Notes: generated from the sequence alone by a model not told the origin. DNA of 64,000 nt from an uncultured bacterium (GCA_965370555.1 CBDUVB010000002.1:39467-103466); one strand, 5' to 3'. Numbered from the stretch's first letter, positions 243 through 42,110 are shown. Translations and numbers: made by a program.

Positions 243-1643
243 ATGGCACACAGTAACATGACAAGAAATGACTGGCTTCGGTTTGGAACAGTCCTCCTCG
301 TTGCCCTCGGCTCGCTCGCTCTTCTCTACCCGTTCTGGCCATTGAAGGACGTTGTGAACCTCGGTCTCGATCTGCAGGGTGGGGTTAGGATGGTCCTTGA
401 GGCACAGGATGTAGAAGGGATGGATGAGGGTCAGAAGAGAGATACGCTCGATCGGGTCATTGCCATTCTCAATAACCGCGTTGACCAGTACGGCCTTTCC
501 AACGCCGAGATCAAACGGATGGGAACGTCGAGGGTCTTAGTGAACCTCCCTGGAACTAAGGATCCCGAGGAGGCTCGCAACCTGATCGGTCAGACTGCGA
601 TGCTCGAGTTTCGTAAGGTGGTTGAAGCGGGGACGAGCCCCAACTCCGACCTCGTTCCCACCTCTGCCACACAGGAGGTCCTGTACAATCGGGAGGGGAT
701 TCCCTACATCGTGGAATCAACGCCCTTGCTGACCGGAGCGGCCCTTGCCGACGCGAATGTGCGCACCTCTCAATCGATGCAGACTGCTGGAAAGCTCTTT
801 ATCTCTCTCTCGTTCAACCAGGAGGGGGCGCAGCAGTTTGTGGAGGCGCTTCGCCACCTGAAAGGGGACAACCCGGATACGCCGCAGAACGAAGGGGACC
901 TCCTGGCGATCGTGCTCGACCACGTCATCTATAGCGCGCCGCGGATCACCGATTCGATCAAGACGGCCGCTGCGCAGGGTTGGCGGTCGGTACAGAATTC
1001 GACCACCATCAGCGGACAGTTCACCAAGGAGGAGGCGACTCGGATCGCGATCGTCCTGCGTGCCGGTGCCCTCCCGGTTGCGGTGAAGGTTGTCGAAGAG
1101 AACACGGTCGGCCCGACATTGGGGAACGATTCGATCCGGCGCGGGATGATCACCATCGTGGCCGGGTTCATCATCATCCTCTTCTACATGCCGGTATACT
1201 ACCGTGCTCTAGGAATCGTCGCTGATGTCGCGCTTGTTCTCAACATGTTGATCATCTTCGGGGCGCTGGTCGTTTTCAGTGCGACCCTCACCCTCCCGGG
1301 GATTGCTGGTATCATCCTGACGATCGGTATGACGGTCGACGCCAACGTGATCATCTTCGAGCGGATCAAGGAAGAACGGCGTACCGGGAAGTCTCCACTC
1401 GCCTCGGTGCGAGCTGGGTTTGAGAAGTCACTCTCCACCCTGCTCGACGCGAACATCACGACGCTCCTCACCGCGCTTATCCTCCTTCTGATCGGGACCG
1501 GTCCGATCAAGGGGTTTGCGATCACGCTGGGGATCGGTGTGGTTGGTAGCCTGTACTGTGCCTTGGTTGCTAGCCGACTCCTCCTGGAGAGGGCCGGCTT
1601 TGCCGAGCATATTCCGGCGAAGGTGGTGCAGAGCGAGTCGTAA
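243..1643 (+). CDS. secD: Protein translocase subunit SecD
   Basis: 466 aa; N-terminal TM, periplasmic domain with LDLQGG motif, C-terminal 6-TM bundle; RBS GGAGGG 8 nt upstream; follows yajC. Confidence 0.9.
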   Translation: MAHSNMTRNDWLRFGTVLLVALGSLALLYPFWPLKDVVNLGLDLQGGVRMVLEAQDVEGMDEGQKRDTLDRVIAILNNRVDQYGLSNAEIKRMGTSRVLVNLPGTKDPEEARNLIGQTAMLEFRKVVEAGTSPNSDLVPTSATQEVLYNREGIPYIVESTPLLTGAALADANVRTSQSMQTAGKLFISLSFNQEGAQQFVEALRHLKGDNPDTPQNEGDLLAIVLDHVIYSAPRITDSIKTAAAQGWRSVQNSTTISGQFTKEEATRIAIVLRAGALPVAVKVVEENTVGPTLGNDSIRRGMITIVAGFIIILFYMPVYYRALGIVADVALVLNMLIIFGALVVFSATLTLPGIAGIILTIGMTVDANVIIFERIKEERRTGKSPLASVRAGFEKSLSTLLDANITTLLTALILLLIGTGPIKGFAITLGIGVVGSLYCALVASRLLLERAGFAEHIPAKVVQSES

Positions 1644-2562
1644 CGCTAAGGATCAGTTTAAGAAGCGCATCGGAAGGACGAATGCCGCCGCGCTTGACTT
1701 CGAGATCAAGGTTGATCCCCAAGTCGAGTGCGGCGGTTAGCCTTTGCGCCGAGTACCCCTTTGCCTGTGTCGCGAGCCGGCGGACGAGCCAGGATGGCGT
1801 TCCGAGCAGCGTCGACATCTTCGCCTCTGCGATCTTGGAATCGAGGAGGACCCGTACCATCAGGAGTTTCGTCAGGTGGCGTACGACCCCAGAGAAGACC
1901 CGCCCAGGGTCCTCGTGCAGGCGAGAGAGTGTTGCGAGGCTCTCGGGAAGGTTGTGGTCTCCAATGCGGTCGAGGAGAGGGTAGATCGATCCCTCCCCCG
2001 TAGAGAACCCTACTTTCTCGATCGCGACGCGATCGATCGTCCCTCCGGAAGAGAAGGAGCGAAGCTTTCGCGCCTCCTGAGAAAGAACGAGAAGGTCGCC
2101 ATTGCACCGTGCGATCAAGACCTTCAGCGCCTGCGGATCGAGATGAACTCCCTGCGCGACCATCACCTCAGAGGCCGTGCGTTCCAAGGCCTTTCCCTTG
2201 ACAGGAGGGAGGGCCTGCACTATTCCGCGTTTTCTGGCTGCCTTGACGAGCGGGCTCGTCCCCTTCAACCCCGGCGCGAGGAACGTGAGGTGCGTCTCTG
2301 AAGGGAGATCCCGTTCGATGAGGGCGGAGAAGGGCTTCGCCTTGATCGTCTCTGCATGACGGACGACGAAGTGACGGCTCTCAGCAAAGAGAGAAGCGGA
2401 CTGAAGCTCCACCATAAGGGCGGAAAGATCAAGCTCGTCGCCGAACAAGGTGTGTCGTTCGGCCTTTGCGTCCCCTTCGAGAATCCTCGTGTGGCGAGCC
2501 TGCAGGGCCTGCTCGCAGCGGAACGGATCGCCGAAGATCAGGGCTAATTGTGGTTCAGACAT
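1570..2562 (-). CDS. holA: DNA polymerase III delta subunit (HolA)
   Basis: 330 aa; N-terminal LIFGDP...LFGDELDL...SASLFAESRHFVV motif and overall length/fold signature of HolA; low-complexity C-terminal tail overlaps secD 3-prime end by 74 bp (convergent). Confidence 0.7.
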   Translation of the reverse strand: MSEPQLALIFGDPFRCEQALQARHTRILEGDAKAERHTLFGDELDLSALMVELQSASLFAESRHFVVRHAETIKAKPFSALIERDLPSETHLTFLAPGLKGTSPLVKAARKRGIVQALPPVKGKALERTASEVMVAQGVHLDPQALKVLIARCNGDLLVLSQEARKLRSFSSGGTIDRVAIEKVGFSTGEGSIYPLLDRIGDHNLPESLATLSRLHEDPGRVFSGVVRHLTKLLMVRVLLDSKIAEAKMSTLLGTPSWLVRRLATQAKGYSAQRLTAALDLGINLDLEVKRGGIRPSDALLKLILSVTTRSAPPSPEYARQSRPSPGGVG

Positions 2563-2578: not shown

Positions 2579-2897
2579 GTAAGATGGTTAGATCTTAGCC
2601 AGCTCTCGTGCGGGGGGCAATGGGGAGAGGAAGATATCAGCAGTCATCGGCAGCGCTGTTCGATCTTACGGATGGAAGTTGCTCACGGGACCGTGCTAAA
2701 AAGAATCCCAGCAGAAAAACATTAAGAAACAGGATCCGGACCGGTTCTCCACTCAAGGGCCTAATCATAAAATCAATCTAGCGAAGCTGCTGTTGATTTG
2801 CTAGACTTGAACATCAATGCTCAAACTACGACGTTCCTTCCGAACCGCTAACGTTTGACAGCTACATGCGCCTACTAGGCAACGGACAATGCGTAGT

Positions 2898-4328
2898 TCA
2901 TTCTGGCAGAAGCCTCTTCACGAGGTCTACGCCCAGGTAGCTGTATATGCTATCCGGAGTTGACGCTTGTGCTGACCTCCGGAGGCCAGCAATCACGCTG
3001 CCGACCAAGACCTCCCACGGCTTGTTTGAGCCCGCCAGGCCAACGAGCAGATTCCTCATTCCTTTCAGATCGGCGTAGCGCCGATCAAATCCAGAATCAC
3101 GAAACGCAATTACCTCATCACGATACTCATGCTCAGCGGTCGATGCAAGCCACGATTGGAGTTGCTTCTCCAAAGTGGCCCACTCGGTACCCATCGCAGC
3201 TAGTACTTCGTCCGATACTATGAGATTCTCCGCAGCCCTGCAATTCAAGCGCAACCGCACAAGTGGGGGTAAATCCTCAAGGGGTTGTCCAGGTACGTTA
3301 TCTCCATCCCGGAGTGAGTATCCACGCGGGTCGTCGTATACGGCGCGCAGCAAACCGGCAGCCACTTTTTCAAACTCATTCATGCCACCAACACCGTTGA
3401 CCGCACGCGGAAACAACCTAAGGCGTCCATTGGATGACCTGACTGCCTGTTGCCATATGCGCTCATCGTCCACGCCCTCAACCAGGAGGATTGGGGACTC
3501 GTTGAACACTTGCGAAAGCGGATGCGCACCGAATACCGGCAATACACGTCGATGTACCTCGTTCAGCGGCACGAAGGACAGATCAACGTCATCAGACTTC
3601 ATGAAGGCAATATGTACTGATGACACATCGGCAAGCGCCGCCATTAAGGATGTGCTATGAGTCGCCAACAGAACCCGTAGATGACTTCCCGAAAGGTGCT
3701 TGACAACGAACTGCGCAAACCTGTGCTGTAGGTCAGGATGGAGATGGAGATCTGGCTCATCGACCAACAGTATGTTCACTTGACCTTGCGCTGCTTCCTT
3801 CTGGAACACCAGCACCTCGATCGCCAGCGAGATCAGCTCCGCCTCCCCACTGCTAATGTTCCGAGGTTCGATTCGCTGCTCGTTGCCGAGCCGTATCTCA
3901 AACGCTGACCCGGTAGGAGTGATCTGAATGTTGTCTAACAAGCTGTTGATGGATTCGATGACTAAATCGAAATGGTACGTACTGGCACGGATCTCCGGAT
4001 CGTTTTGGATTTGCCGAAGCGTTGTTATTTCTAGATTACGAAACAGCGCTACGCTCTGCTCGCGAAACTGGCTGAACTGATTCGATCGCCTCGTTTCCCG
4101 GAGCCAGGTTTGATTGGTGATGATATTGTTGTCAACGTTGGGCAGGTACTGAAGCATGCCACCTCTCTCTGGAGTGAGGTAGCGAACTGTGGCAATGGTT
4201 TCATCGGCACCGAGAGCCTCTTCGAGCGTCTTGAGTAAACGGCTCTTGCCGCACCCGTTCTTGCCAACAACGACGTTGATGCGTCCAAGATTGCGGAGGC
4301 TATAACCACCTTTATCAAGAAGATCCAT
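2898..4328 (-). CDS. OLD-family-like ATP-dependent endonuclease (AAA_21-type ABC ATPase fused to Toprim-like domain)
   Basis: 476 aa; Walker A VVGKNGCGKS, signature/Walker B LLVDEPDLHLHPD, H-loop LLATHS, then ILLVEGVDDERIW resembling the Toprim LVEGxxE motif of OLD/Gabija GajA/PARIS-type nucleases. Confidence 0.6.
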   Translation of the reverse strand: MDLLDKGGYSLRNLGRINVVVGKNGCGKSRLLKTLEEALGADETIATVRYLTPERGGMLQYLPNVDNNIITNQTWLRETRRSNQFSQFREQSVALFRNLEITTLRQIQNDPEIRASTYHFDLVIESINSLLDNIQITPTGSAFEIRLGNEQRIEPRNISSGEAELISLAIEVLVFQKEAAQGQVNILLVDEPDLHLHPDLQHRFAQFVVKHLSGSHLRVLLATHSTSLMAALADVSSVHIAFMKSDDVDLSFVPLNEVHRRVLPVFGAHPLSQVFNESPILLVEGVDDERIWQQAVRSSNGRLRLFPRAVNGVGGMNEFEKVAAGLLRAVYDDPRGYSLRDGDNVPGQPLEDLPPLVRLRLNCRAAENLIVSDEVLAAMGTEWATLEKQLQSWLASTAEHEYRDEVIAFRDSGFDRRYADLKGMRNLLVGLAGSNKPWEVLVGSVIAGLRRSAQASTPDSIYSYLGVDLVKRLLPE

Positions 4329-4416
4329 AGGTCAACTGTCCTGTCCAGAAATGATCAGTTTGCGACGCTGCAACATAGTGTGCCGCGCATCGCTCCCTGT
4401 AGTTCACACGTATCAC

Positions 4417-4716
4417 TTATCCATCCCTCTCAACCCAGTCTTGCAGCTTCCTCTCGGCTTCCCTTTTAGTGCTAACGTGAAACTTGGCAACAACGATATC
4501 CAACGCGTAGCGCGCGATTTCTTCCTCGCCTCGCATCTTCACTATCCACTTAGCAGGGCCGCTTGGCTCAGTTCTGACGGCGATTACTTCATCGTGGTCC
4601 TTGTCTGCTGTCACGCGTTCGGGATGTCCTTCTGGACCTTTAACCCAAATCTCCTCAAGAGATTCTCCGAGTCCCATGCCTACCTCCTTTCCGGTTGCTG
4701 TGCGACGCACTGCCAA
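4417..4716 (-). CDS. Hypothetical small protein (99 aa; possible internal start giving about 86 aa)
   Basis: ORF with protein-like composition between OLD-like gene and AbiEi-like gene; no recognisable motif. Confidence 0.3.
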   Translation of the reverse strand: MAVRRTATGKEVGMGLGESLEEIWVKGPEGHPERVTADKDHDEVIAVRTEPSGPAKWIVKMRGEEEIARYALDIVVAKFHVSTKREAERKLQDWVERDG

Positions 4717-4912
4717 CTATATCGTGTTGCGCCCGGGGGCGCCATACATAGAACCTTCACACGGCACTGACTTGCCCCACTTCGGCGGTCCACTTCTAAG
4801 GCATTGGGGTCTTGCAAAGCAAGACGTGCGGCTACCCTTTCCCTTCTTGGTTCGCCGGCTGATCTCAGGAAGGCAACGAAAGAGCAGTCGGACCTGGGTA
4901 TCATAGCGGGAG

Positions 4913-5704
4913 TCAAACACCAGGCAACTCCTCTCGCTTTGGCACGGTGATCTGGTACTTCGAGTCGAGCTGGCCTCCCTTGTAGAGTTGGCGTTTCCCC
5001 TTACCAAGATCGACTCGTGAGGGATCCATACGGCCAAACCAGGCATGCCCAACCGTCTCCGCGCTCCAAAGAAACAGCCGTTTGACCTTCACTGATCGGC
5101 AGTTCACCAAAAGGTCCTGTACTACATTCGGCCGTAGTGTGCTGAGTCCTTCCATCAGCTGATACGCTTGTTCGACGTCGTCATTCGTTCTGGCGAGACG
5201 CATCTGCTCCATAATAGCCCGTTCTGCACTCGATATGACGACTTCGAATCCACCGCAGTCCAGTTTAGCGGTGGCCTTGTCCGGAACGTGCTCAAGCAGG
5301 GACAGGCAACGGTGTTCCAGGTTGGCCTCCCACCGGTAATTCCTGAACCATGCTGGTAGCTGTTCCGGCTGGTCGCTTACCAGGATGACCTTCTTTTGCC
5401 GCCCAAGAGGAACGAAGTGGGATAGCCCCTGCAATTCCAATGCGCTACGTCCCCCAACATGCACGGTCATGCCGAGCTGGGTCTGCAGGGCATAGAGGCC
5501 TCCCCGCCAGTCAACCTGATCGCCCGGCTGGGTGAACGCCCTTGCGCCGAAGCGCACTAGCCATCCAGATCCCACATGCCAGTTCGCCAGCTTGCTGGAT
5601 ACCCCAAGCCGGTTAAGCCATGCCTGGGTCGCGACCGTTCCCTTCGGCCACTTCCGAAACACCTGGTTCATTTTTGATGGCTTCTTACTAGTCATCCTAG
5701 TCAT
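4913..5704 (-). CDS. AbiEi-family (type IV TA antitoxin-like) winged-helix domain protein, orphan
   Basis: 263 aa; N-terminal segment RLGVSSKLANWHVGSGWLVRFGARAF fits the AbiEi_4 wHTH pattern (LGVSR..L..LV..G.L.R..RGVY); no AbiEii nucleotidyltransferase partner adjacent. Confidence 0.45.
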   Translation of the reverse strand: MTRMTSKKPSKMNQVFRKWPKGTVATQAWLNRLGVSSKLANWHVGSGWLVRFGARAFTQPGDQVDWRGGLYALQTQLGMTVHVGGRSALELQGLSHFVPLGRQKKVILVSDQPEQLPAWFRNYRWEANLEHRCLSLLEHVPDKATAKLDCGGFEVVISSAERAIMEQMRLARTNDDVEQAYQLMEGLSTLRPNVVQDLLVNCRSVKVKRLFLWSAETVGHAWFGRMDPSRVDLGKGKRQLYKGGQLDSKYQITVPKREELPGV

Positions 5705-5909
5705 CCTCGTGTAAGTCTAAACCAATAATCAGTTCAGTTCGCTTTTCCAACCAATTATCTAGCACACCTGGTTGTTTGTCAACTGAAATAAACCATCCAA
5801 GAGCCTCTCCAACACACAGCGCCACACTCCGTCAGCAGGAACAGCAGGATGACCGGCATAGGCACTCGGACTAATAGCAACAAAGGTATAATAGGGCTGA
5901 CGGGAAAAG

Positions 5910-6074
5910 TAGCGACTCTCTGCAAAGAGAGAAGCGGACTGAAGCTCCACCATAAGGGCGGGAAGATCAAGCTCGTCGCAGAACAAGGTGTGCCGTTCGG
6001 TCTTTGGATCCCCGGTGAGAATCGCCGAAGATCAGGATAAGTGGCTGTTCAGGCATGGGTCCTCGCTGAGCAGT
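5910..6074. repeat. Copy 2 (partial) of the holA 5-prime direct repeat; includes holA start-codon context and has an internal deletion of about 40 bp
   Basis: Aligns to 2384-2578: gcaaagagagaagcggactgaagctccaccataagggcgggaagatcaagctcgtcgcagaacaaggtgtgccgttcgg...gaatcgccgaagatcagg...gttcaggcat; minus-strand ORF 5759..5986 translates FCDELDLPALMVELQSASLFAESR, the same as HolA residues about 38-61. Confidence 0.8.
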
Positions 6075-6207
6075 AGGAATACCCGATCATAGCCTGAAGG
6101 ACGTAGGCAATGATGGAGCGAGGTCGTCAAGCGTTCAGCCGATGTCGCGACGGTTGGCTTCTTATGTTGCGTTACTTAGAGCGTTCCAAAAAGGCACCAG
6201 TAGTGCT

Positions 6208-6930
6208 TCACTCTTCTGCTCCTTTTTTGCTGGAACCTGATCTTCTGATCCGATATGCAAGATACAATAACTGGGATAGCATTGCGACGGAGTCAGCGAT
6301 TAGCCTTACGTGTGAGCCTTCTTTCTCTTCCCATTTCACTGGGATTTCAAGAATGCGGTAGCCTCTTTCCTTTGCGCGATAGAGGATCTCGACATCCCAT
6401 ACATAGCCTGTTGTCACGGTCTGCTGGAGGAGTTCTCTCAGAATGCTTCTCCGAAATGCTTTGAAACCACATTGGGTGTCAGCAAAGTCCGTGGTTATCA
6501 ACAGTTTCCTCAGCAGAGTGAACGCCTCTCCAAGTAACGCTCTCAAAGGTGCTCTTTGAGTTCCCTTACTCCTGACTCCAATCACTATATCGTAAGATCC
6601 CGCCAGATGCTCCAGAAACGGCATGGCTGATTCTATTGGTACTGCCAAGTCAGCGTCTGTAAGCAAAACATTAGGATATCTCGCAGCAACAACGCCTCTA
6701 CAAATTGATAAACCTTTTCCCATCCGCAAATCGTTGACTACGAGAGTGCATTCCGGAAACATACTACGTACTGCGACAGATGTCGAATCTTGGCTGTTAT
6801 CGTCCACGATGATTATTTCGTATGGAACCCCAAAAGTCTTGAAGCAGTTAGAGATGTGCCGAATTGTTGTAGGTATCCGGTTGACTTCATTGTACACAGG
6901 GATTATAACGCTCGTGCTTGCTTCATTCAT
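6208..6930 (-). CDS. Family 2 glycosyltransferase (dolichyl-phosphate mannose/glucose synthase-like)
   Basis: 240 aa; SVIIPVYNE...IIIVDDNSQD...TDADL DXD-type GT2 motifs; 8-bp overlap with upstream membrane-protein gene (operon). Confidence 0.8.
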   Translation of the reverse strand: MNEASTSVIIPVYNEVNRIPTTIRHISNCFKTFGVPYEIIIVDDNSQDSTSVAVRSMFPECTLVVNDLRMGKGLSICRGVVAARYPNVLLTDADLAVPIESAMPFLEHLAGSYDIVIGVRSKGTQRAPLRALLGEAFTLLRKLLITTDFADTQCGFKAFRRSILRELLQQTVTTGYVWDVEILYRAKERGYRILEIPVKWEEKEGSHVRLIADSVAMLSQLLYLAYRIRRSGSSKKGAEE

Positions 6931-7582
6931 TCTTCATGAGTCTCCCGATCGCTGCAGATCGAGCTCGGAGACTACAGACAATCCATATGGCAAGGGGAAC
7001 CGTAGCAGCTGTCGTGATTACCCACACTATACCTATCGGTTTTCCGAAAAGGGTTGTGTTCGCCCATAGATTCGAGAGGATAGCTACCCAAGACAAAATT
7101 GCAGGAATGGATAGAACCACGTATCTACTACCTGCTAAGAACGAATCTCCCGGCCTGCGCATATTATCAACAACAAACCTCTCCCAGGAAAACGCTTTCC
7201 TTGCAGGACGGTTGGCGCATCTTACTCGGGGCGCCAGCTTCTCTTCTATGCACTGAGCTAAGCCTAAGATGTAAGCATCTTGACGGAAATAAACTAAAAC
7301 AAGGAACCAATAGACAGGGATGATTGCTAGTAAAACCCAGAGGAACGTCTCCGAAAGAGCCAGCAGCTCCAGTGCCCCTGATTCTCCTGGTGTGGACGAA
7401 CGAGCAGCCAGCACGCCCAAGAACCCGAGGAAACCTCCGAATAGCAGAATCGCAATATGTACGAAATTATGCTCGATTTGCATCCGCGTTACAATTTCTT
7501 GTCTCAGCGTTCTGTATTCCTCCAGGATCACTTCGAGTTCTTCCTTGACTTCAACTTCGTCTTCCTTAGGTTGCTTTTCCAC
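6923..7582 (-). CDS. Membrane protein with acidic coiled N-terminus and about 4 TM helices (partner of GT2)
   Basis: 219 aa; hydrophobic stretches IAILLFGGFLGFLGVLAA, FLWVLLAIIPVYWFLVLVYF, VVLSIPAILSWVAILSNLW, IVWVITTAATVPLAIWIV; translationally coupled to the GT2 gene. Confidence 0.5.
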   Translation of the reverse strand: MEKQPKEDEVEVKEELEVILEEYRTLRQEIVTRMQIEHNFVHIAILLFGGFLGFLGVLAARSSTPGESGALELLALSETFLWVLLAIIPVYWFLVLVYFRQDAYILGLAQCIEEKLAPRVRCANRPARKAFSWERFVVDNMRRPGDSFLAGSRYVVLSIPAILSWVAILSNLWANTTLFGKPIGIVWVITTAATVPLAIWIVCSLRARSAAIGRLMKNE

Positions 7583-7988
7583 CGCGGTTCCTCCTTACTT
7601 GGCGTACTCACCCATAAGAGTAATAAGATTTGACCTTTTAGCCAATCGTCCTTGGCTCTCTCGAACAACGCTTTAACCTCCCCCGCCGACACAGGTTGTC
7701 CTACGCCCCTATTCGAACCAATCACCTACTGCATAGCCGCGCGCAGAACTACCCCGGACCGCGAGTTACCGCAGTTGCTGACCATTGTACTTAGCAATCC
7801 TAGTTACGCGACCGAAGCTTCCTTTTGTTGTAACATCAGACGGTGGCGAAACCAACATAAGCATCTGCGTAACGCAATCAACATTGGGATTCCGGGGACA
7901 CAAACCATAGTTCCGTGAAGCGCTATGTGAATCGGAGTATGTGTCCCCCGATTCCCAGTATCCTCGCTATGCCCTCTTCCCCCTTGCG

Positions 7989-9287
7989 TCAGCCTTTGCC
8001 ATCACCTGCTGCTAGCCAGACCTCGACTTCCTCTGCAGTCACTGTCTCGAATGCGATCTGCTCTCCCTCGCTCTTGATGGGGGTCAGTGGATTCAAGACA
8101 AGGGGATTGAGAGCAGTTACATCTCCATTGAGTGCTCTAAGAATAGAGGTCGACAATCTGACGATGTTCTCTTCCTCATCCGCAATTACTAAGGGGAATA
8201 TGAGGCTGTCATTGCCAACGTCAACTTCGCCATCGGTCTTTGCGCGGTCCACATGCTTGGATACGAAGTCAGAGACGTTCGTCTGGAGATCCAGGCATAG
8301 GGTACGAAGTCTTTCGATGTGCGCCCGGAGTTGGAAGAGTCTGTTCGTGAATGGCGTGAATTCATATGACGCTTTGGTTATGTCGTATTTGAGGAAGCGG
8401 CCCGACGCCAGTGCTTGATCCAAGAAGCGAGTTGAAAGTTTCCGACCCCTGCTGGTCGTAATGGAGTACGCGACAAGCCATCGCAGATACTTGCCGCGCA
8501 TTCGGCTCCGGTCGCCAAGGCTGCCATCAAAGCAGCGACGTGCGTATGAAGCCCAAACATAGGCGGGCCTTATGCCATGCTTCCCTTTCTCCATGAGGAG
8601 CGCGCTGTTCTCGAGGATCTCACGCCGGAGGTTGGCCTTGAGTGCGGAGTCTACTAGCGTATCTGAGATACCAAGATGTACTCGGAGAACGTCGACGATG
8701 TCACGAAACGTCGTGAAACTGTGAATCCAGTTGGCTCCTGGAAAAGGGGATTGCCCCTCGACTGCCGCTTTCATCTCACTTTGCCGAGAAACCTCATCAA
8801 TGAATGACGAGATGGCTTCCACGTCGGTCATGAGAGGACTAGGATGGCTCGTGATACTACGTCTCTTGTTACAACTTAGACCAAGGTACGAACTCTCCAA
8901 CTCGAGGAACAAAGCCAGCGCTTTCCGATCTTCTCTGATCTTCCACAGCTCATCACGCAGGAATGCCAGAATGCACAGCCTGCCATTGCAGGCCAACTTG
9001 TACGCCTTACGATACTCCATGCGAGTAATGCTGATCCTATTTGGGATATCATAGAACGATCCAACACGTGATCCGATGAGAAGGATGTAGTAGTCAGCGC
9101 GCTCAATTGTTCGGAGACATGCTTCGTAGGTGTTCTTGTCGAGGGCTTTCGGGAAGTCGTTCTGCTCGGAGAGGAATACCTCATAGCCGAGTTTTTCAAG
9201 GTAGTATTTGATTGCGCTGCGAAGGTCACGGAAATCCTGGATCGTAGAAGACACGAAGACTGCAGGCCTCTTTCCCATCATAAGCAT
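7989..9287 (-). CDS. DUF4062-like N-terminal domain protein with uncharacterised 340-aa C-terminal region
   Basis: 432 aa; N-terminus PAVFVSSTIQDFRDLRSAIKYYLEKLGYEVFLSEQ...ADYYILLIGSRVGSFYD matches the DUF4062 (TIR-like fold) pattern (VFISSTxxDL...R......G..V); remainder has no recognisable motif. Confidence 0.55.
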   Translation of the reverse strand: MLMMGKRPAVFVSSTIQDFRDLRSAIKYYLEKLGYEVFLSEQNDFPKALDKNTYEACLRTIERADYYILLIGSRVGSFYDIPNRISITRMEYRKAYKLACNGRLCILAFLRDELWKIREDRKALALFLELESSYLGLSCNKRRSITSHPSPLMTDVEAISSFIDEVSRQSEMKAAVEGQSPFPGANWIHSFTTFRDIVDVLRVHLGISDTLVDSALKANLRREILENSALLMEKGKHGIRPAYVWASYARRCFDGSLGDRSRMRGKYLRWLVAYSITTSRGRKLSTRFLDQALASGRFLKYDITKASYEFTPFTNRLFQLRAHIERLRTLCLDLQTNVSDFVSKHVDRAKTDGEVDVGNDSLIFPLVIADEEENIVRLSTSILRALNGDVTALNPLVLNPLTPIKSEGEQIAFETVTAEEVEVWLAAGDGKG

Positions 9288-9635
9288 TACCCCATCCTAC
9301 AAGACACTAGAGTCTAGATCCTATTACGTGATGCTTGGACATGTAGAAGAAGCGAACCACAAATGACCAAGACAGGCTTCGGGCAGATCTTGGTTTTCGA
9401 CCTCGTCATGCATGACGATACGCCTGATTGTAGAATAGAGCACCTCTACGCACTTTCGCTAATTGGGGTATCCCGATCACCGTCTCACAGACCTTTCGAA
9501 TATTCAACGTATCCCCCCATGAACAAGTACGCACGTTAATAGATGAAAGGAGTGTACAGGTTAAAAGAGGGAACTGTCAAATCTTGTGAAGGGCGGAAAA
9601 TCTAAAGAACGCATCCTTGGCAAAACTATCTGTTT

Positions 9636-9753
9636 GGGAAGATCAAGCTCGTCGCCGAACAAGGTGTGTCGTTCGGCCTTTGCGTCCCCTTCGAGAATCC
9701 TCGTGTGGCGAGCCTGCAGGGCCTGCTCGCAGCGGAAGGGGTCGCCAAAAGGC
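9636..9753. repeat. Copy 3 (partial) of the holA 5-prime direct repeat
   Basis: About 105 bp near-identical to 2414-2523 (ggaagatcaagctcgtcgccgaacaaggtgtgtcgttcggcctttgcgtccccttcgagaatcctcgtgtggcgagcctgcagggcctgctcgcagcggaa), then decays. Confidence 0.8.
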
Positions 9754-9843
9754 CTGCAACTGAACTGCTGTTCATGCTCATCTTGCATGCAACAACCCTC
9801 TTCCTTGTTCTGCTGGATATTCGCGGCTAATCTCAATGACGAC

Positions 9844-10419
9844 ATGCCAGCAATCTCGCGAGTGTGCGATGAGATCATCTCCGTCATCAGCGATAGCCTA
9901 CAAGGTGAGAACCACACGTGTATCATCATCCACGGGGAAATTGGGGTAGGGAAGACACGTCTCGCGGAACAGCTTGCCGCGGCACTTATCGAACGCAGGA
10001 TCAAGACCGGAGGAGTTCTCTCTCCCCGGATTCTCGATGGGAATGAAACCATTGGCTACACGATTCACGATCTCTCAACAGGTGAGGAAGAGCCGTTCAT
10101 CAGGCTGACCCCACCAGGGATCCCGATTGGCAAATTCTATCTGATGGAAGATGGATTAGCATTTGCTCGTGCAGCGATCGAACACGCTACAAGAGCCATG
10201 CAAGTCGTATTCGTCGATGAGGTCGGTCGTCTCGAGTGCGATGGTAAAGGACACGCCCCGGCTGTGCGAACGCTATTACGCTCGCAAGCACTTCCGGTGC
10301 TCCTCGTTCGCTCCTCTTTTGTCGAGCGAGTGGTTGAGACCTTCGGGATCGCGCGCTATGAGCTCCTTTCCGTCGAATCAGGCCTCTCGGATTTCCTTCC
10401 GGAAGAAGGACGCCCATGA
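9844..10419 (+). CDS. P-loop NTPase, THEP1-like (COG1618)
   Basis: Walker A GEIGVGKT, KTGGVLSPRI...GYTIHDLSTGEE and Walker B VVFVDEVGRLE match nucleoside-triphosphatase THEP1 layout; start placed at ATG 9844 after the repeat (longer ORF 9586.. runs through the repeat and is rejected). Confidence 0.6.
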   Translation: MPAISRVCDEIISVISDSLQGENHTCIIIHGEIGVGKTRLAEQLAAALIERRIKTGGVLSPRILDGNETIGYTIHDLSTGEEEPFIRLTPPGIPIGKFYLMEDGLAFARAAIEHATRAMQVVFVDEVGRLECDGKGHAPAVRTLLRSQALPVLLVRSSFVERVVETFGIARYELLSVESGLSDFLPEEGRP

Positions 10420-14939: not shown

Positions 14940-15443
14940 ATGGAGCTTTCCCGCAAAGCTTACTGGGATCAGTTCCCACGAACCCCGGAGATGGTCATCA
15001 TGTTCGTTCCAAGTGAAGCCAGTCTCTCCGCCGCCTTTGAGCAGGATCCGGATCTATTGGAGTTCGGCGTGGGTAAACGTGTCCTGATTACTACACCCCT
15101 CATCCTGCTCGCCCTACTGCGCGCTGTGGCTTACGGTTGGCAGCAGCAGCAGATCGCGGAGAACGCCCGTGAGATCGCAGCGCAGGGTAAGGACTTATAC
15201 GATCGAGTGATCCGATTCCTCGAACTATTCCAGAGGACGGGCAAAGGCTTAGGCCAGGCGGTCGAGGCGTACGACAGCGCGATCGGATCACTAGAAAGGA
15301 GACTCCTTCCTTCAGCTAGGCGATTCAAAGAACTGAACGCATCAACCAAAGATCTCCCCGAGCTAACGCCAGTGAACCGTCAGCCCCGCCCACTCTCCTC
15401 CCCTGAGTCCTCCGAGACGGATGTCTCCGAGGCGGTGGAATAG
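14940..15443 (+). pseudogene. rmuC: DNA recombination protein RmuC, C-terminal fragment only (5-prime truncated)
   Basis: 167 aa matching the RmuC C-terminal domain (MVIMFVPSEASLSAAFEQDPDLLEFGVGKRVLITTPLILLALLRAVAYGWQQ); the N-terminal two-thirds of a normal 450-aa RmuC is absent, and the yhaO-like gene start lies 116 bp upstream on the other strand. Confidence 0.6.
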
Positions 15444-15639
15444 GTTTTCACCGAACGGAAAAGGAGGCCAAAAAGAGGCCCCCTTTTCGCTACTACCGGT
15501 AGTAGAAAGGCGGTCTACGCGATAGCGGAGATAACAATAAGCGTATGCCTACCTATCACGCGACCGTCGTTGTCCCTGAAGGAATGGACTTCAGTCACCC
15601 TCGGCGGTTAGAACCCGTACTGTTTGGCCTCTTGTCGCC

Positions 15640-15860
15640 TTTGGGAGAGGCACAGGCATTTCTCTCGCCCGTTCGTTGTACTCACTCAAGCCGCCAAGAT
15701 CGCCAAGAAGAGCCAGTTTTATGTCTACTGCCTGTAGTTCTTTCCTTTCTTCTTGCTGTTCTCTGCGCCTTTGCGTCTTTGCGAGAGGCACAGGCTTTTT
15801 CTCTCGCCCGTTCGTTGTGCTCACTCAAGCCACAAAGGTGTCGCGACACCAAGATCGCCA
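15640..15860 (-). repeat. Two tandem copies of an 85-bp hairpin-containing intergenic repeat (same family as 35150-35345, opposite orientation)
   Basis: ttgggagaggcacaggcatttctctcgcccgttcgttgtactcactcaagcc at 15646-15700 and ttgcgagaggcacaggctttttctctcgcccgttcgttgtgctcactcaagcc at 15784-15845; reverse complement matches ggcttgagtgagtgtaacgaacgggcgagagaaaaggc...ctctcgcaaagacgcagag at 35260-35330. Confidence 0.75.
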
Positions 15861-35345: not shown

Positions 35346-35496
35346 AATGTGGAAAGGAATAAGAACAAAAAGCATTTCTTGGCGACCCCGTACCTTACCT
35401 GGAGCGTGAGGAGCCAGAAGAACAGGAGAGTGTTAGCCCGACCAAGCCCCGACATCTGCCTGAGAGACGCCACCCGAAACTGAAGGAGGTACAGCC

Positions 35497-35769
35497 ATGA
35501 ACGAAGAGAAGATCCGAAGAGAGGAGTTTGTCATCAGCGGCGAGAAGCTTGTCTCGACGGTCAAGGAGCTGGTACGGCAAGGGAACATCCGCCGCGTCAC
35601 CATCAAGAATAAGGAAGGAAAGACCCTGATCGAAATCCCGCTGACATTCGGAGTGGTCGGAGCGCTCTTCTTGCCCACCCTGGCCGCCATCGGCGCAATC
35701 GCAGCACTTGTGACCGAGTGCACGATCGTCGTGGAGAAAGTTGAGGAGGATGAGAAGGACGAGGAGTGA
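35497..35769 (+). CDS. DUF4342-family small protein (paralog 1)
   Basis: 90 aa; EEKIRREEFVISGEKLVSTVKELVRQGNIRRVTIKNKEGKTLIEIPLTFGVVGALFLPTLAAIGAIAALVTECTIVVEK matches the conserved DUF4342 profile; RBS GGAGG upstream. Confidence 0.6.
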   Translation: MNEEKIRREEFVISGEKLVSTVKELVRQGNIRRVTIKNKEGKTLIEIPLTFGVVGALFLPTLAAIGAIAALVTECTIVVEKVEEDEKDEE

Positions 35770-35881
35770 AGCATAAGAAACACACTTGACAAAGTCGAGG
35801 CGAAATGCTTTCCTTAGAGAAGCTTAAGAAAGGGATCAAGTAGAATCTGGGAACCCTTTCATACAATACAGGAGGTGCACG

Positions 35882-36085
35882 ATGTGCAGTTATTTCGCGA
35901 TACTGGCGGCGATACCTGGTTTCTTTTTGAGCTCTTTCTTTCTCATGCTCTTCTCCAGGGTTATCGGCCCCCACTTCAATCAGCAACCGTTGGACTACAC
36001 GATGGCGATGTTGATCACCATCGCCCTGTGGGTGACCGTGGCGCCACTGGTGACAGCACGGCGTCGGAGAAGCTCTAAGGATTAG
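35882..36085 (+). CDS. Hypothetical small membrane protein (67 aa, 2 TM)
   Basis: RBS AGGAGG 6 nt upstream of ATG 35882; hydrophobic segments ILAAIPGFFLSSFFLMLF and MAMLITIALWVTVAPLV; lies between the two DUF4342 paralogs. Confidence 0.35.
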   Translation: MCSYFAILAAIPGFFLSSFFLMLFSRVIGPHFNQQPLDYTMAMLITIALWVTVAPLVTARRRRSSKD

Positions 36086-36536
36086 CCCGATTGGCTTAGT
36101 AAGAGCAGTCTATCACCGGGGAGCAGGATAGGAACAGAGACCTTGTGTCCCGCCCCCGGTGATGACGTCCGGCCGTAACCTCGTTTAGGTCTCTCGCAAC
36201 CGCCATTGAGGTGCACCGCTGGCTAGGACCAGGATTTGCCATTGTAAAGCCATATCTGAGAGCGATTGGGAAGGAGCACGGACTGCTTTCGAACTTCGCA
36301 AAGCCAACCCCAGAGGTAAAGCGGGTAATTCAGCGAGCCGTTTCTTCCCCGGTTTCCTAATGGCTCCGAGGGCTGTGGGTCAGCGGTTGAACCGAAGTCA
36401 GACTTGTCTGTACCCAGTCCTTCCAGGTTACCCACACCTGTTTACAGTAGGCAGGCCGAATAGCGAAGAAGCTTTTTGGGGAAATTGCTTCCGAACGAGC
36501 TGACTATGCCGTTCATCGACAGAAAGGAGACTCAAC

Positions 36537-36812
36537 ATGGATGAGGAGAAGATCCGAAGAGAGGAGTTCGTCATCAGCGGCGAGAAGCTGGTTTCCACGG
36601 TCAAGGAACTGGTGCGGCAAGGGAACATCCGCCGTGTCACTATCAAGAACAAAGAGGGGAAGACCCTGATCGAGATTCCACTAACATTCGGCGTGGTCGG
36701 AGCGCTCTTCTTGCCCACCCTGGCCGCTATCAGCGCCGTCGCAGCGCTTGTTACCGAGTGCATGATCGTTGTGGAGAAGGTTGAGGATGAGGATGAACCA
36801 TTTCAGGAATAG
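36537..36812 (+). CDS. DUF4342-family small protein (paralog 2, about 93% identical to paralog 1)
   Basis: 91 aa; identical to paralog 1 except a few substitutions and C-terminal acidic tail; RBS AAGGAG upstream. Confidence 0.6.
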   Translation: MDEEKIRREEFVISGEKLVSTVKELVRQGNIRRVTIKNKEGKTLIEIPLTFGVVGALFLPTLAAISAVAALVTECMIVVEKVEDEDEPFQE

Positions 36813-36956
36813 TTTGGCTGCTACCTGGGTAGCTATTGAGGAATCGCAAATATGGTCTCATACCGAGAAGATAAGGCTTGTGTCCCTAGAACGAACAGGA
36901 CTCTCAGCGCCGGAGTTGTCCCGGGTCGGGCATTACCTTGCCCAAGCTCCTCTGTG

Positions 36957-37754
36957 CTAAGTGACACGATACGGCATTGGGCTGCTATCTTTGTCGAATC
37001 TTTCTATTCGAATCTTTTCCGAGCCGAAGCCGCCATCCTGCATGCGACTTTCAACCTGGATTAAGGAGAAGTCACGGATATTGGAGTTCGCGGAACTCTT
37101 CAGCTCCGCCAGTCGCCACTCGATTTCCTTTGTCATGCCGCCAGAAGCATACGAGAACTTCACAATACAATACGATGGCCAGGTGTCCTGCCGAGCTACC
37201 TGCGACGATATAGGAAACTGCATTGGCTTGTTCTCGTAAGGCTGAATCGCCAAAGCTTGTCGTTTGTTGGGGGTACCCAACGTGTACGACTCTCCTGCCT
37301 CGGCAAGGAGTGCCCCGTCTTGAGTCACGAGCTTCACATCATAGCGGCGTGGCAGTATTTGCACCTCGCCTGGATTTCCAACAAGCGCGCGCACTTTAAA
37401 GCCCGGCATTGTGGGAGCTCGCTCCAGTGTAGCAGAATCAAGAACTGGAGTAGGTTCACGAGCTCTTGTCAGCAGCGTTTGGGTCGCTTCCTGCAACGAG
37501 GCAAGCTTCCTTTGGACCTCAAGGGAACCTTGGTGGATGACGTTGCTTCGCTCAAGCACTTCCGTTTGGCGTAGCTGAATATCGCGAAGCCGGATGTAGA
37601 CAGCTGTCAGGATAACTGTGAATCCCGCAGTTAGCCCCGAGAAGCCTTCGGTGCTTTCTCCGCGAATCACCTGTACCAAGCCAAAGATCGCAATTAGTGT
37701 CCCTATGACCCATAGAATCTGGCTCAACTTGCGTGTGTTCTCGCTACGTTCCAC
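36957..37754 (-). CDS. Hypothetical N-terminally membrane-anchored protein
   Basis: 265 aa; N-terminal TM ILWVIGTLIAIFGLV and second hydrophobic segment; remainder soluble with no recognisable motif. Confidence 0.4.
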   Translation of the reverse strand: MERSENTRKLSQILWVIGTLIAIFGLVQVIRGESTEGFSGLTAGFTVILTAVYIRLRDIQLRQTEVLERSNVIHQGSLEVQRKLASLQEATQTLLTRAREPTPVLDSATLERAPTMPGFKVRALVGNPGEVQILPRRYDVKLVTQDGALLAEAGESYTLGTPNKRQALAIQPYENKPMQFPISSQVARQDTWPSYCIVKFSYASGGMTKEIEWRLAELKSSANSNIRDFSLIQVESRMQDGGFGSEKIRIERFDKDSSPMPYRVT

Positions 37755-38035
37755 TTTTCTCGACGCCTCCTAAATAATCTCGGACTAGTTCCAGTCTCAG
37801 CTTAGTAAACGGTCTTTGATGTGTCAAGACGAATGAAAAGGCTTCTAGTGTGTTAGCCGCAACTGCTGAATCGAATGAGATCTATTCTGAGTGCGAGGGA
37901 CACATACCATACTCCCATTGGACGCGTGGTCTATCGAGGAAATAACAGAGCTGATAAACAGGTAGTTATTGAAGAATTGCAAACATACCCCGATACAGTT
38001 TATGACTCTGGAACCCCTAGCTATGTGATATACTC

Positions 38036-38629
38036 ATGTCAATGGATCAGATGTGGAGATTAGCAGCAATGGGATTAACGCTCCTTGGGTCAGTGCTTTC
38101 ACTTGCCGAGGCCATTCGCCTCCCGCGAGTAGGTGCCGCACTCAAGGTCCTCTTTCCGCTCATAGCTTTCTACACTTTACCTCTCATCATGCCGCCACAG
38201 GGAGTATCACCCGAGGATACCGTGATTTTCATGGCAGGTTGGGTGCAATGGGCTATTGTGCTAATGCAGGCAGCGATTTTGGTGACGGTGGGCGTTCTTC
38301 ACCTGGGAATTCTACAGTTTGCTGTCTCCAGAACAGCGTTCTACAAGCGCTGGAGGGCAGTCCGTGCGGCCTTTCGGGTATATCAGACTGTTGTGCTGCT
38401 AGGCGGGATTTTCCCCCTTGTACTAGTTGTGCGAATGGAGACCATCTTCTACACGGGGTTCCTTTGGAGGTTTAGCTTATATGGGTTCTTGGCTGCAGTC
38501 GTCATGGTCGTCATGTATTTCTTAGCCCTGTTCCTCAATAGGGTTTTTCAGGAAAAGCGTACAGCCTTGGTGCTCGCGGTTGTCTGCGTATGCTTATCTT
38601 CCGCTATTGAACTATTTCTCCTGCCCTAG
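38036..38629 (+). CDS. Hypothetical polytopic membrane protein (about 6 TM)
   Basis: 197 aa; multiple 20-residue hydrophobic segments. Confidence 0.45.
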   Translation: MSMDQMWRLAAMGLTLLGSVLSLAEAIRLPRVGAALKVLFPLIAFYTLPLIMPPQGVSPEDTVIFMAGWVQWAIVLMQAAILVTVGVLHLGILQFAVSRTAFYKRWRAVRAAFRVYQTVVLLGGIFPLVLVVRMETIFYTGFLWRFSLYGFLAAVVMVVMYFLALFLNRVFQEKRTALVLAVVCVCLSSAIELFLLP

Positions 38630-38717
38630 CTAATTGAGCTTCTCTTTGAACCCAGCACTATTGCGAAAATGGTCATGGGATATCGTCTTTTGACCTCTCG
38701 TGATGCATTTCAACGGT

Positions 38718-38840
38718 TCACCAGAGCGTACTCACCGGCAGGGCATACAGATTTGAGCCGAAAGGAACGGGTTGATCGCCGGTAGAGAGAACGATCCCTC
38801 GTAGGAAGCGGTCACCCAACGAGTCACGGGATCTAAGGGG
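38718..38840 (-). pseudogene. 3-prime fragment (about 40 codons) of a third DUF4143 AAA ATPase paralog
   Basis: Translates ...SLGDRFLRGIVLSTGDQPVPFGSNLYALPVSTLW*, near-identical to the C-terminus of the 40783..42093 gene; about 150 bp nucleotide homology 38685-38840 vs 40786-40945 including the downstream UTR. Confidence 0.55.
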
Positions 38841-38954
38841 GGCCTTCATTATTAGGATTTCAGCGCCTCACGTTCCACAAAAGCACTTCGCGATCATACT
38901 GGTGCTGGAGTAGAGCGGAGATTGGAGTATGCACCCTCGGGATTCTTCCGATGC

Positions 38955-40172
38955 CTACCCGCCCACCCAATGGAGCACGGGCTTCGCCAGGAACTCGCCG
39001 ACCGATATCCCCTCTCCACCGACAAGCAGCTTGCGCGTTGGCTTGAACGCGGTACTAAATGCGTCCATCCCCGTGAGTGTTCCCCTCACGCGCCCGCTCT
39101 TGACCTCGATTGCAGTAAGCGATCGACTTGCTTGCACGACGAAATCAACCTCGTGGTTGCCCTCTCGCCAGTAAAATACCTTGCATGTACCGGCGCTCTG
39201 TGCATTGGCTAGATGAGCTCCGACTGCGGACTCGACCAATCGTCCCCAGAAAGCGCGATCGCTCAGTGCTTCATCCATTGAGAGTCCCAGCGGCGCTGTC
39301 ATTAGCGCCGTATTCAGCACCTGCAATTTCGGGCTCGATCCACGTCGGCGCACCGTGCTTCCCGAGTACTTCTGGAGTCCCGTTACCATCCCTGCCCCTG
39401 TGAGAAGATCAAGGTAGTGGGCCAGGGTGGTGGTATTTCCTGCATCTTGGAGCTGGCCGAGCATCTTGGTGTATGAGAGTATCTGTCCGGAGTAGTTGCA
39501 TGCCAGCTCGAACAGCCTCCGCAGCAATGCAGGCTTGTCCACCCGCGTAAGGAGCAGCACATCCCGAGCAATCGTTGTCTCGATAAGGGCATCGAGGATG
39601 TAGCGAGACCAGCGCTCAGGATCAGTAATCAGTGGAGCAGCGCCGGGGTAGCTGCCGTGGAACAAGTACGTGTCGAGATCCCAGCCAAAGCAGGAACGCA
39701 TCTCCGAGAAGGTCCAGTGGGGAAGGTGGAGAATCTCGAATCGTCCGGCAAGGCTCTCCGTCAGACCTCGCTGGATGAGCAATGGAGCCGACCCAAGCAG
39801 GATCACCTTGAGATCGCAACCAGAGGCCGAGTCTTCGTCCCACAGACGTTTTACCGTCTCCGACCAGCCGCCAATCTTCTGAATCTCGTCAAGAGCGAGA
39901 ACAACCCCTTTCATGCCTCCCCTGCGTTGCATAAGGCGTGCCGCATCCCATTGTTCCTCGATCCACTGACGTCCGCGTAAGGTTGGTTCGTCAGCGCTCG
40001 CGTACTGGAAGGCCATATCAGAAGAGGCCAGCACTTGCCGCACAAGCGTTGTCTTGCCAACTTGACGTGGTCCGCTCACGACTTGGATGAAGCGACGTGG
40101 CTCCTTGAGTCGCTGTGCGAGAAGCTTAGCCCTCGGGCGTTTGTAGGACGGCAACGCGGCATTACTCAACAT
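38955..40172 (-). CDS. AAA family ATPase (AAA_14 + DUF4143 architecture)
   Basis: 405 aa; Walker A GPRQVGKTTL, Walker B VLALDEIQKI, C-terminal DUF4143-type region. Confidence 0.75.
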   Translation of the reverse strand: MLSNAALPSYKRPRAKLLAQRLKEPRRFIQVVSGPRQVGKTTLVRQVLASSDMAFQYASADEPTLRGRQWIEEQWDAARLMQRRGGMKGVVLALDEIQKIGGWSETVKRLWDEDSASGCDLKVILLGSAPLLIQRGLTESLAGRFEILHLPHWTFSEMRSCFGWDLDTYLFHGSYPGAAPLITDPERWSRYILDALIETTIARDVLLLTRVDKPALLRRLFELACNYSGQILSYTKMLGQLQDAGNTTTLAHYLDLLTGAGMVTGLQKYSGSTVRRRGSSPKLQVLNTALMTAPLGLSMDEALSDRAFWGRLVESAVGAHLANAQSAGTCKVFYWREGNHEVDFVVQASRSLTAIEVKSGRVRGTLTGMDAFSTAFKPTRKLLVGGEGISVGEFLAKPVLHWVGG

Positions 40173-40390
40173 AGTGAGTAATTTTACTCAAAGTCTTGAG
40201 TAAAATCAACTCGAACGATAGTTACCCCCATTGCTAGTCGCAACTATCTCCTGCAAATCAGGATTGCCACGCGCGCTTCCAGAGATACTCTCAAATTCCG
40301 AAAACGCCAAGAATGAAGATCTGACCACAGCTCCCCCTGGCCTTCTGTCGCACGTCGGGAGTGCTGATATTCGTTGCTGCGTGGGAAGAT

Positions 40391-40657
40391 TCAGCTCTCT
40401 TCGTCGTATGGTAGCTTGGGGAGTTGCCTGAGCGCTGCTACGAAGCGCTTGCGGTCGTAGTTTTCGTTTTGCTTGAGAACGTTGTAGAGTTCGTGGACAA
40501 CGACTGTGCCGATCAATTCCACGGCTTCCTCCCTTGAGAAGCCCTCTTTGATCAACCGTCTCAATGTCTGTCGCGTTTCTGGCGGATCGTTGTCGCGGAT
40601 CTGGTTCCCAACGACCTTCAGTATTATCTCCCGGCGCCTTTTCTGGTCTTCGTCCAT
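40391..40657 (-). CDS. Hypothetical small basic protein (about 88 aa)
   Basis: Start chosen at internal ATG (MDEDQKRRREIILK...); upstream part of the ORF-track call is Arg-rich low complexity. Confidence 0.35.
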   Translation of the reverse strand: MDEDQKRRREIILKVVGNQIRDNDPPETRQTLRRLIKEGFSREEAVELIGTVVVHELYNVLKQNENYDRKRFVAALRQLPKLPYDEES

Positions 40658-40782
40658 ACGCCCTCTTTCTTGCGCTCGCGTCTTTCGGTCTCTCCAGCGG
40701 TTCTGAGATCTTCTTCGCACTCCGACTGAACGGATGGTAGTGCAGACCAAGACCGTTTTGCAACTGATCTAATGCGTCGCTG

Positions 40783-42093: not shown

Positions 42094-42110
42094 TCAGTGG
42101 TGGATTAGCA
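42066..42110. promoter_or_regulatory. Two copies of a 15-bp near-palindrome AACCACTSAGTGGTT spaced 21 bp, at the 5-prime end of the AAA ATPase gene (operator-like)
   Basis: ttcaaccactcagtggtggattagcaaccactcagtggttaatt. Confidence 0.4.

Follow-up and report, generated by a model that had tools for sequence, protein, structure and literature searches.

Do three genes that lie side by side between repeats in an uncultured bacterium form a single phage-exclusion system, or are they passengers that merely share an islet? This question is raised by a 64,000-nucleotide stretch of DNA (GCA_965370555.1 CBDUVB010000002.1:39467-103466, hereafter the window, with positions counted from its first letter), in which positions 6208-9287 hold, on the minus strand, a gene for a 432-aa protein with a DUF4062 domain (gene A), a gene for a small protein with four transmembrane (TM) segments (gene B), and a gene for a family 2 glycosyltransferase (GT2; gene C). 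The original prediction, made from the sequence alone, had joined all three into one conflict module on an att-bounded islet. Our analysis suggests instead that A and B-C are unrelated cargo that do not work together: A is most likely a phage-triggered, NAD+-depleting abortive-infection protein, and B-C is probably a translationally coupled, two-subunit split polyprenyl-phosphate glycosyltransferase. The finding itself is real and mostly explained, neither A nor B-C is a new kind of system, and current understanding is not overturned.

Judging from the names that the SecD cluster carries, the host belongs to Candidatus Bipolaricaulota. In the window, the holA gene for the delta subunit of DNA polymerase III is intact (1570-2562, minus strand), and its 5′ end is present in three copies, all in direct orientation and on the same strand: the reference copy within the intact gene (2422-2573), a left att-like repeat (holA′ copy 2, 5907-6073) that retains codons 1-12 and 31-66 and has decayed through an internal deletion and a frameshift, and a right att-like repeat (holA′ copy 3, 9636-9749) that covers codons ~10-47 and is 96% identical to 2422-2535. 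These three direct copies define two tandem islets divided by copy 2, the first (~2631-5906) carrying an AriA/PtuA-like AAA_21 ATPase and an orphan AbiEi, and the second (6074-9635) carrying genes C, B, and A, with a GC content of 0.49 compared to 0.57-0.58 in the core. Four relatives that share 95-97% nucleotide identity over YajC-SecD-holA lose all similarity at 2625-2631, beyond which they have different genes or reach a contig end; therefore, the segment is not core, and the possibility that these are core genes conserved in all relatives is ruled out. The att-bounded islet that had been proposed is thus confirmed, both by the direct holA copies and by the divergence of relatives at the repeat-proximal boundary. 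No integrase, recombinase, or remnant thereof was found by family search among the open reading frames (ORFs) between 2.6 and 15.9 kb, and tblastn with three tyrosine recombinases yielded chance-level matches only. The idea that a tRNA or another structured RNA serves as the attachment site was also considered and rejected, as no tRNA or Rfam RNA was found. Overall, we regard it as rather probable that the 5′ end of holA is a strain-variable hotspot and that the segment carries two independent cargo modules, with A as a stand-alone anti-phage protein and B-C as a two-subunit glycosyltransferase.

The separation of A from B-C is most evident from comparative genomics. A search of species-representative genomes provided 80 A-family loci, in which homologues of B and C were sought within 10 kb at E <= 1e-3; none of the 80 loci contained either, and not even a generic GT2 related to C was present. 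Searches of B and C with phmmer against all ORFs of 87 loci gave no match outside the window's own strain, and clustering of the neighbours within 4 kb of A homologues revealed no family common to them, other than within sets of closely related genomes. Among the 119 genes immediately next to an A homologue (family counts, reduced set) are a few type I/III restriction-modification genes, helicases, and integrases, and many housekeeping genes. Within the window, A and B are separated by a 406-bp spacer (7583-7988, minus strand), in which the DNA becomes similar to the B-C block of relatives from 7709 or 7648 onwards; in other words, the shared block reaches no further than 66-127 bp upstream of B, and those loci (L090-L095) lack A. 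This boundary indicates that A and B-C are separate modules. A stands beside B-C only in near-identical strains (L001 and L002) and in a strain of 95% identity (L103). The view of the three genes as one module, which would call for their co-occurrence elsewhere, is therefore contradicted by the absence of B and C from all A-family loci, by the lack of any conserved neighbour of A, and by the occurrence of B-C elsewhere without A.

Gene C (6208-6930, minus strand) encodes a 240-aa GT2 catalytic domain that, according to its Pfam and PDB matches, is of the polyprenyl-phosphate glycosyltransferase type (ArnC, DPMS, and GtrB-like). It matches Pfam Glycos_transf_2 at E 1.4e-19, and residues 5-205 align with ArnC (9hwj, 9bhc, and 8vxh), DPMS of P. 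furiosus (5mlz), and GtrB (5ekp) at E 2e-12 to 6e-7, the last value being that of GtrB. DDN and DAD motifs are present, and homologues are numerous at ~40% identity, most of them labelled dolichyl-phosphate beta-glucosyltransferase; all scores against NCBIfam equivalogs were far below the cut-offs. The protein ends at residue 240 without a TM helix, whereas members of the ArnC, DPMS, and GtrB class have 2-4 of their own. Gene B (6923-7582, minus strand), whose GTG start lies 7 nt behind AAGGAGG, encodes 219 aa with an acidic N-terminal helix followed by four hydrophobic segments (residues 40-58, 79-97, 155-173, and 185-203). B and C share 8 bp (ATGAATGA) where the one ends and the other starts, and a terminator-like hairpin with a T-run (6194-6206, minus strand; consensus match only) directly follows the stop codon of C. 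PADLOC 2.0 and NCBIfam returned nothing for B, and its identity as GtrA was rejected given no Pfam match at E <= 10 and no sequence relative in the PDB.

Since a TM-less C is conservedly coupled to a four-TM B, a split enzyme with B as its membrane part is suggested. In such an enzyme, B would lend its four TM helices in trans, to anchor C and form the site for the lipid phosphate, or possibly to act as a flippase, and the pair would charge a lipid carrier with a sugar that goes to decorate an envelope glycan. The original prediction had likened the pair to prophage-borne serotype-conversion cassettes. Part of this likeness holds: a GT2 and a four-TM protein do overlap by 8 bp, and the catalytic domain of C is GtrB-like, with a match to the phage family PHROG 841, 'GtrB-like O-antigen conversion' (E 5e-24), even though it lacks the two C-terminal TM helices of GtrB. 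The assignment to a Gtr cassette does not hold, as the islet has no GtrA (PF04138), no GtrC or third membrane glycosyltransferase, and no prophage or phage genes. Some points also weigh against the split enzyme: B has no detectable relative outside one narrow clade and bears no GtrA signature, and no downstream transferase of the GT-C type was identified for B-C.

Only five homologues of B were found among 5.8 billion proteins (73-96% identity), and in five out of five relatives a C homologue follows with the same 8-bp overlap. The shared DNA block is 1.4-1.5 kb long (window 6225-7709; 80-87% identity) and was found only in close relatives within Bipolaricaulota, where it occupies different islands. 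Two loci with more distant GT2 homologues were examined for a conserved membrane partner upstream, and neither showed one. In L090-L092, a SMODS-associated NUDIX effector (Pfam PF18167, E 6e-33; PADLOC Sa_NUDIX, E 8e-33) lies directly upstream of B-C, and in L092 the pair is followed by PDC-S11 (DUF4268, E 1e-137). In L095, a complete-looking HEC-03 candidate system (L095:2355-4261) lies directly downstream, comprising HEC-03B (460 aa, AAA_15/AAA_21 plus DUF3696, E 8e-148) and HEC-03A (175 aa, E 3.5e-36), and the far flank of this locus corresponds to window positions 40337-40776, within a zone that holds two PDC-S01 genes. Downstream of B-C in L090 are a 47-aa ORF, a 205-aa protein without assigned function, and then an ordinary ABC transporter. 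These varied defence neighbours suggest that B-C is a mobile block in mosaic defence islets. The NUDIX ORFs (L090:2-508 and L092:3-278) occupy the slot held by the DUF4062 gene in the window and are cut by the contig end; no cyclase is visible beside the effector on L090 or L092, where the sequence ends at the contig end. The L090-type locus belongs to the OP1/Acetothermia single-cell genome GCA_000404965.1 and related contigs.

Such neighbours, which accompany B-C in every strain seen, point, weakly, to a possible anti-phage role of B-C in surface remodelling that would affect phage adsorption, the weakness being due to the phylogenetically narrow sample. A stronger version of this idea, in which B-C would be a receptor-masking or adsorption-blocking module of defence islands that acts independently of A, appears to us possible but doubtful. 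It is favoured by the fact that the direct neighbours of B-C in four contexts are defence or candidate defence genes (the DUF4062-AUX gene in the window, Sa_NUDIX in L090-L092, PDC-S11 in L092, and HEC-03A/B in L095), by the movement of the block between island sites as seen in the flank of L095, by its GC content of 0.46-0.48 compared to 0.57 in the core, and by the PHROG match of C. However, four contexts from closely related genomes are a small basis, and with five homologues in one narrow lineage the association could be explained by one ancestral island; moreover, neither an equivalent of GtrA or GtrC nor a prophage is present, accessory envelope glycosylation genes are common as non-defence island cargo, and in L090 the pair is followed by a short ORF, a protein without assigned function, and an ordinary ABC transporter.

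Gene A (7989-9287, minus strand) encodes, according to its ORF and Pfam match, a 432-aa single-chain DUF4062(NIR)-AUX protein. A Shine-Dalgarno-like GGATGG lies 4-10 nt before its ATG, and a promoter-like arrangement of TTGACA, 18 nt, and TACACT is found upstream (9551-9580, minus strand; consensus match only, 10/12). Residues 10-95 match DUF4062 (PF13271) over profile positions 2-82 of 82 with E 9.3e-19 and 67.9 bits, well above the cut-off of 24.7; the second Pfam match, to TIR_2, is weak (E 0.006). The domain has the TIR-like, flavodoxin-type fold, and the AF2 model of A is confident. The predicted DUF4062-type N-terminus is supported by the profile search. Three parts can be distinguished on the minus strand: the TIR-like DUF4062 domain (residues 1-112, 8952-9287, with the codon of E91 at 9015-9017); a helical 'stalk' or extended core (residues 113-205, 8673-8951) with invariant F162, P183, N186, W187, and F194; and a family-specific AUX domain (residues 206-432, 7992-8672), a helical bundle with small beta elements that is the presumed sensor. 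The C-terminal region is indeed unclassified, as had been noted, but its supposed length of 340 aa is too great, because the extended core reaches approximately residue 205 and the family-specific part is ~225 aa. In 57 A-family sequences, the invariant residues include, besides the five of the stalk, S14, T15, D18, S86, T88, E91, and R111, while F11 and Y92 come close to this (at least 90%). A catalytic-type, active-site-like motif S-x-T-x-x-E-Y is formed with E91-Y92, and its E-Y register is the same as that of DUF4062 proteins from an Enterococcus plasmid and from Salmonella. No P-loop or repeat family was matched in the 432-aa protein by Pfam.

The homologues of A constitute a tight full-length family of ~430 aa (35-61% identity) that is patchily distributed over at least 11 phyla (Chloroflexota, Acidobacteriota, Planctomycetota, Verrucomicrobiota, Myxococcota, Gemmatimonadota, Latescibacterota, Bdellovibrionota, Pseudomonadota, Bacteroidota, and Bacillota) and is also found on three plasmids. 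When 1.84 billion representative proteins were searched with a profile of residues 116-432, 616 of them (clusters at 50% identity) matched at E <= 1e-3; in the best 150, the match starts near residue 112 of a ~430-aa protein, or the protein is evidently a fragment. Fusion of AUX to other effectors was therefore rejected for these best 150 of 616, which show the DUF4062 architecture or fragments only. The AUX domain has no relative in Pfam or the PDB, with only generic four-helix-bundle matches among solved structures. With regard to an E. coli counterpart (Eva03, EcDUF4062), the candidate was dismissed, as the Morganella member of the family had no match in 5,426 E. coli genomes at the DNA level; among phages, only a weak N-terminal match was obtained. 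A appears to be a distinct lineage within the DUF4062-AUX class, with its own sensor domain. A homologue 50% identical to A lies in a dense conflict island (L003:2765-10648) together with Nmad2, Nmad3, GIY-YIG, GmrSD, and a FokI-type nuclease, and three independent contigs (L003-L005) have the Nmad2-Nmad3 pair after the DUF4062 gene.

Several named systems with a DUF4062 domain can be compared with A. Like A, Evangelion is a single gene with an N-terminal DUF4062 core, F11, and an E-Y pair, is located on mobile elements, and keeps a Trp where the core joins the AUX (W187 in A and W162 in Eva01); E91-Y92 of A likewise correspond to E87-Y88 of Eva01. The comparison was made via the Enterococcus plasmid protein, Enterococcus being counted as an Evangelion-positive genus (bioRxiv 10.64898/2026.06.25.731849), and with Eva01 by its described residues only. 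The first 95 residues of A are 44% identical to the Enterococcus protein, and hhalign of the A family against it gave a probability of 99.2 over 193 columns, extending through approximately residue 236; in contrast, the AUX (~206-432) is without similarity, the A family is mainly chromosomal in environmental phyla, and the Q/W/E motif corresponds to N-[ST]-Y-E in the A family. Swarozyc KpSwz (PDB 10wc, 11cq, and 11cv) resembles A in being a single gene with a TIR-like DUF4062 domain, a helical stalk, and a C-terminal sensor, but it is shorter (a 326-residue chain), and its AUX is a winged helix that binds the phage portal. Its catalytic Glu (E97) is located at T+1 of the S-x-T motif, where the A family has Arg or Gln, the invariant Glu of the family being at T+3 as in the Enterococcus protein. 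Membership of A in Swarozyc was rejected, as the A-family profile matched KpSwz chains (E 2.7e-7) at profile positions 4-128 only, which is the DUF4062 part, with no similarity beyond residue 128; a second stretch scored -3.4 bits. A different DUF4062 protein of 447 aa occurs in a P2-like prophage of Salmonella Newport (CP051374, L089:3004-4347), where its gene is flanked by those for virion morphogenesis and baseplate V; Glu occupies T+1 as well as T+3 of its S-x-T motif, which bridges the registers of the KpSwz and Eva01 types.

Three further systems share the NIR/DUF4062 effector with A. Vulcan is also a single protein, but its sensor consists of HEAT repeats, compared with the four-helix-bundle matches in the AUX of A, and identity with A was rejected because no HEAT repeats were found in the C-terminal part. 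Vesta works without such an AUX, together with an alkaline phosphatase (vstB); it was rejected because no alkaline phosphatase is present in the islet of the window or among recurrent neighbours of the A family. NIR-Avs2 has in addition a STAND NTPase and TPR repeats, and an Avs or NLR-like identity of A was likewise rejected, neither a STAND NTPase nor C-terminal repeats having been found.

Recent preprints describe DUF4062 as a TIR-like NADase whose products are ADP-ribose and nicotinamide, and show that single-gene DUF4062-AUX proteins act by phage-triggered NAD+ depletion leading to abortive infection (bioRxiv 10.64898/2026.05.01.722283, 2026.06.25.731849, and 2026.09.04.749371). Among them, Swarozyc is activated by the phage portal (bioRxiv 10.64898/2026.05.01.722283); Evangelion Eva01 needs F11, E87 (in the pair E87-Y88), and W162 for defence, with escapers in recombination genes (bioRxiv 10.64898/2026.06.25.731849); and Vulcan, with its HEAT sensor, responds to a small lambda protein (bioRxiv 10.64898/2026.09.04.749371). 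The same domain is also the effector in Avs2 and Vesta (bioRxiv 10.64898/2026.09.04.749371). Because these homologous single-gene proteins deplete NAD+ upon infection, the same activity is the most likely one for A, and the conflict role proposed for the DUF4062 protein is supported, by analogy, by the 2026 studies. The assignment of parts had been inverted, however, in that the C-terminal region was taken as the effector; in characterised relatives, DUF4062 is the effector (the NADase) and the C-terminal region is the sensor. By homology with Swarozyc, Eva01, Vulcan, and NIR-Avs2, A would be kept auto-inhibited and is probably oligomeric. Its AUX domain may bind a phage protein or a replication intermediate, upon which the TIR-like domains would rearrange and hydrolyse NAD+, and the infected cell would halt growth before the release of phage.

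Several observations weigh against this assignment. The defence role of the ~430-aa A family is predicted from homology to tested DUF4062 proteins, and no NADase activity was seen in several eukaryotic DUF4062 proteins (NWD1, NWD2, and NPHP3; bioRxiv 10.64898/2026.05.01.722283). The Q/W/E motif reads EQW[ED] in KpSwz and the Salmonella protein but N-[ST]-Y-E in the A family, with Tyr in place of Trp, and the catalytic Glu of KpSwz is two residues earlier in its motif than E91. Furthermore, no model in PADLOC 2.0 or NCBIfam covers A or its family, and most of the immediate neighbours of family members are housekeeping genes. A related view accepts A as a conflict protein and proposes that it cleaves another N-glycosidic substrate, as do the CMP hydrolase MilB, DNPH1, and NDT, or that it makes a signalling nucleotide. 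We consider this unlikely, given that every assayed active DUF4062 protein made ADP-ribose and nicotinamide from NAD(P)+ and that no partner effector able to read such a signal is conserved next to the A family. Also tentative, and well short of probable, is the broader proposal that the ~225-aa AUX is a new phage-sensing domain spread across at least 11 phyla and, separately, that B-C is an uncatalogued, receptor-masking split glycosyltransferase of Bipolaricaulota, shuffled as a block of 1.5 kb among islets with DUF4062-AUX, Sa_NUDIX, HEC-03, and PDC-S11 genes.

The two remaining explanations have little to recommend them. That A is a decayed or domesticated remnant without current function, lying in junk between repeats, might be read from islets without integrase and from decayed neighbours (the holA′ fragments, AbiEi without AbiEii, and a truncated RmuC), but it is most improbable considering that the frame of A is full-length and intact, that all family-invariant residues are kept, that its AF2 model is confident, and that identical or 95% identical copies exist in independent samples. 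It is equally hard to credit that A, B, and C act as one phage-exclusion module, with the DUF4062 protein regulating or cooperating with the glycan-modifying pair: the genes are adjacent, on the same strand, and in one repeat-bounded islet, and their order is kept in the second strain (L103), but the count of zero in 80 loci, the A family without a conserved neighbour, B-C without A in L090-L095, and the 406-bp spacer all oppose it, as does the fact that characterised DUF4062-AUX proteins act as single genes.

Beyond the second islet, additional features of the window were observed. The ATPase of the first islet (476 aa, AAA_21/AAA_15; 2898-4328, minus strand) matches PADLOC AriAB at E 1e-22 and is also similar to PtuA, GajA, and NsnB, and the AbiEi_3 antitoxin-type regulator (4913-5704, minus strand) matches PADLOC AbiEi at E 3.5e-82 and has no AbiEii toxin. 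As the 585-bp gap between the two contains no recognisable ORF, the AbiE system looks decayed or re-partnered; an AbiEii remnant was considered and rejected, the two short ORFs next to AbiEi having no family match. The low-GC region of 9.75-15.5 kb encodes NTPase_1, a PNPOx-like protein, and a YhaN/SbcC-like AAA_27 protein with a metallophosphoesterase, and may also be accessory. The NTPase_1 ORF (277 aa, 9586-10419) has its GTG start inside holA′ copy 3, and its Pfam match begins only at residue 113, which suggests that the true start is probably downstream of 9750. The RmuC ORF (14940-15443) is truncated, its match being confined to the C-terminal half of the family profile (positions 156-289 of 291). 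Short direct repeats (15631-15698 and 15769-15837, ~139 bp spacing, 84-93% identity) are found in the gap that precedes the Mur ligase gene, with which core genes resume at 15873. A second repeat-rich variable zone (35400-42100) contains several ORFs without family, direct repeats (35496-35753/36536-36793, 88%; 38685-38827/40792-40934, 89%), and two AAA_14+DUF4143 ATPases, paralogues of each other (38955-40172 and 40783-42093, minus strand), with E-values of 6e-178 and 1.5e-173 against the PADLOC candidate PDC-S01. In the relatives L093-L095, stretches from this zone are found next to B-C.

The locus offers a view of how the genome of a candidate phylum builds defence islets without integrases, modules being stacked at the 5′ end of holA, and of a small glycosyltransferase cassette, B-C, found in the company of defence genes. 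Not until 2026 was DUF4062 (NIR) identified as a TIR-like NADase that serves in phage defence and in the human vault protein TEP1, and the systems tested to date are few and come from Enterobacteria, Pseudomonas, and Staphylococcus. The A family is a large and sharply bounded branch of DUF4062 proteins, extending from Chloroflexota to Bacillota and missing from PADLOC 2.0; its trigger, if found, would give this effector class a new recognition module.

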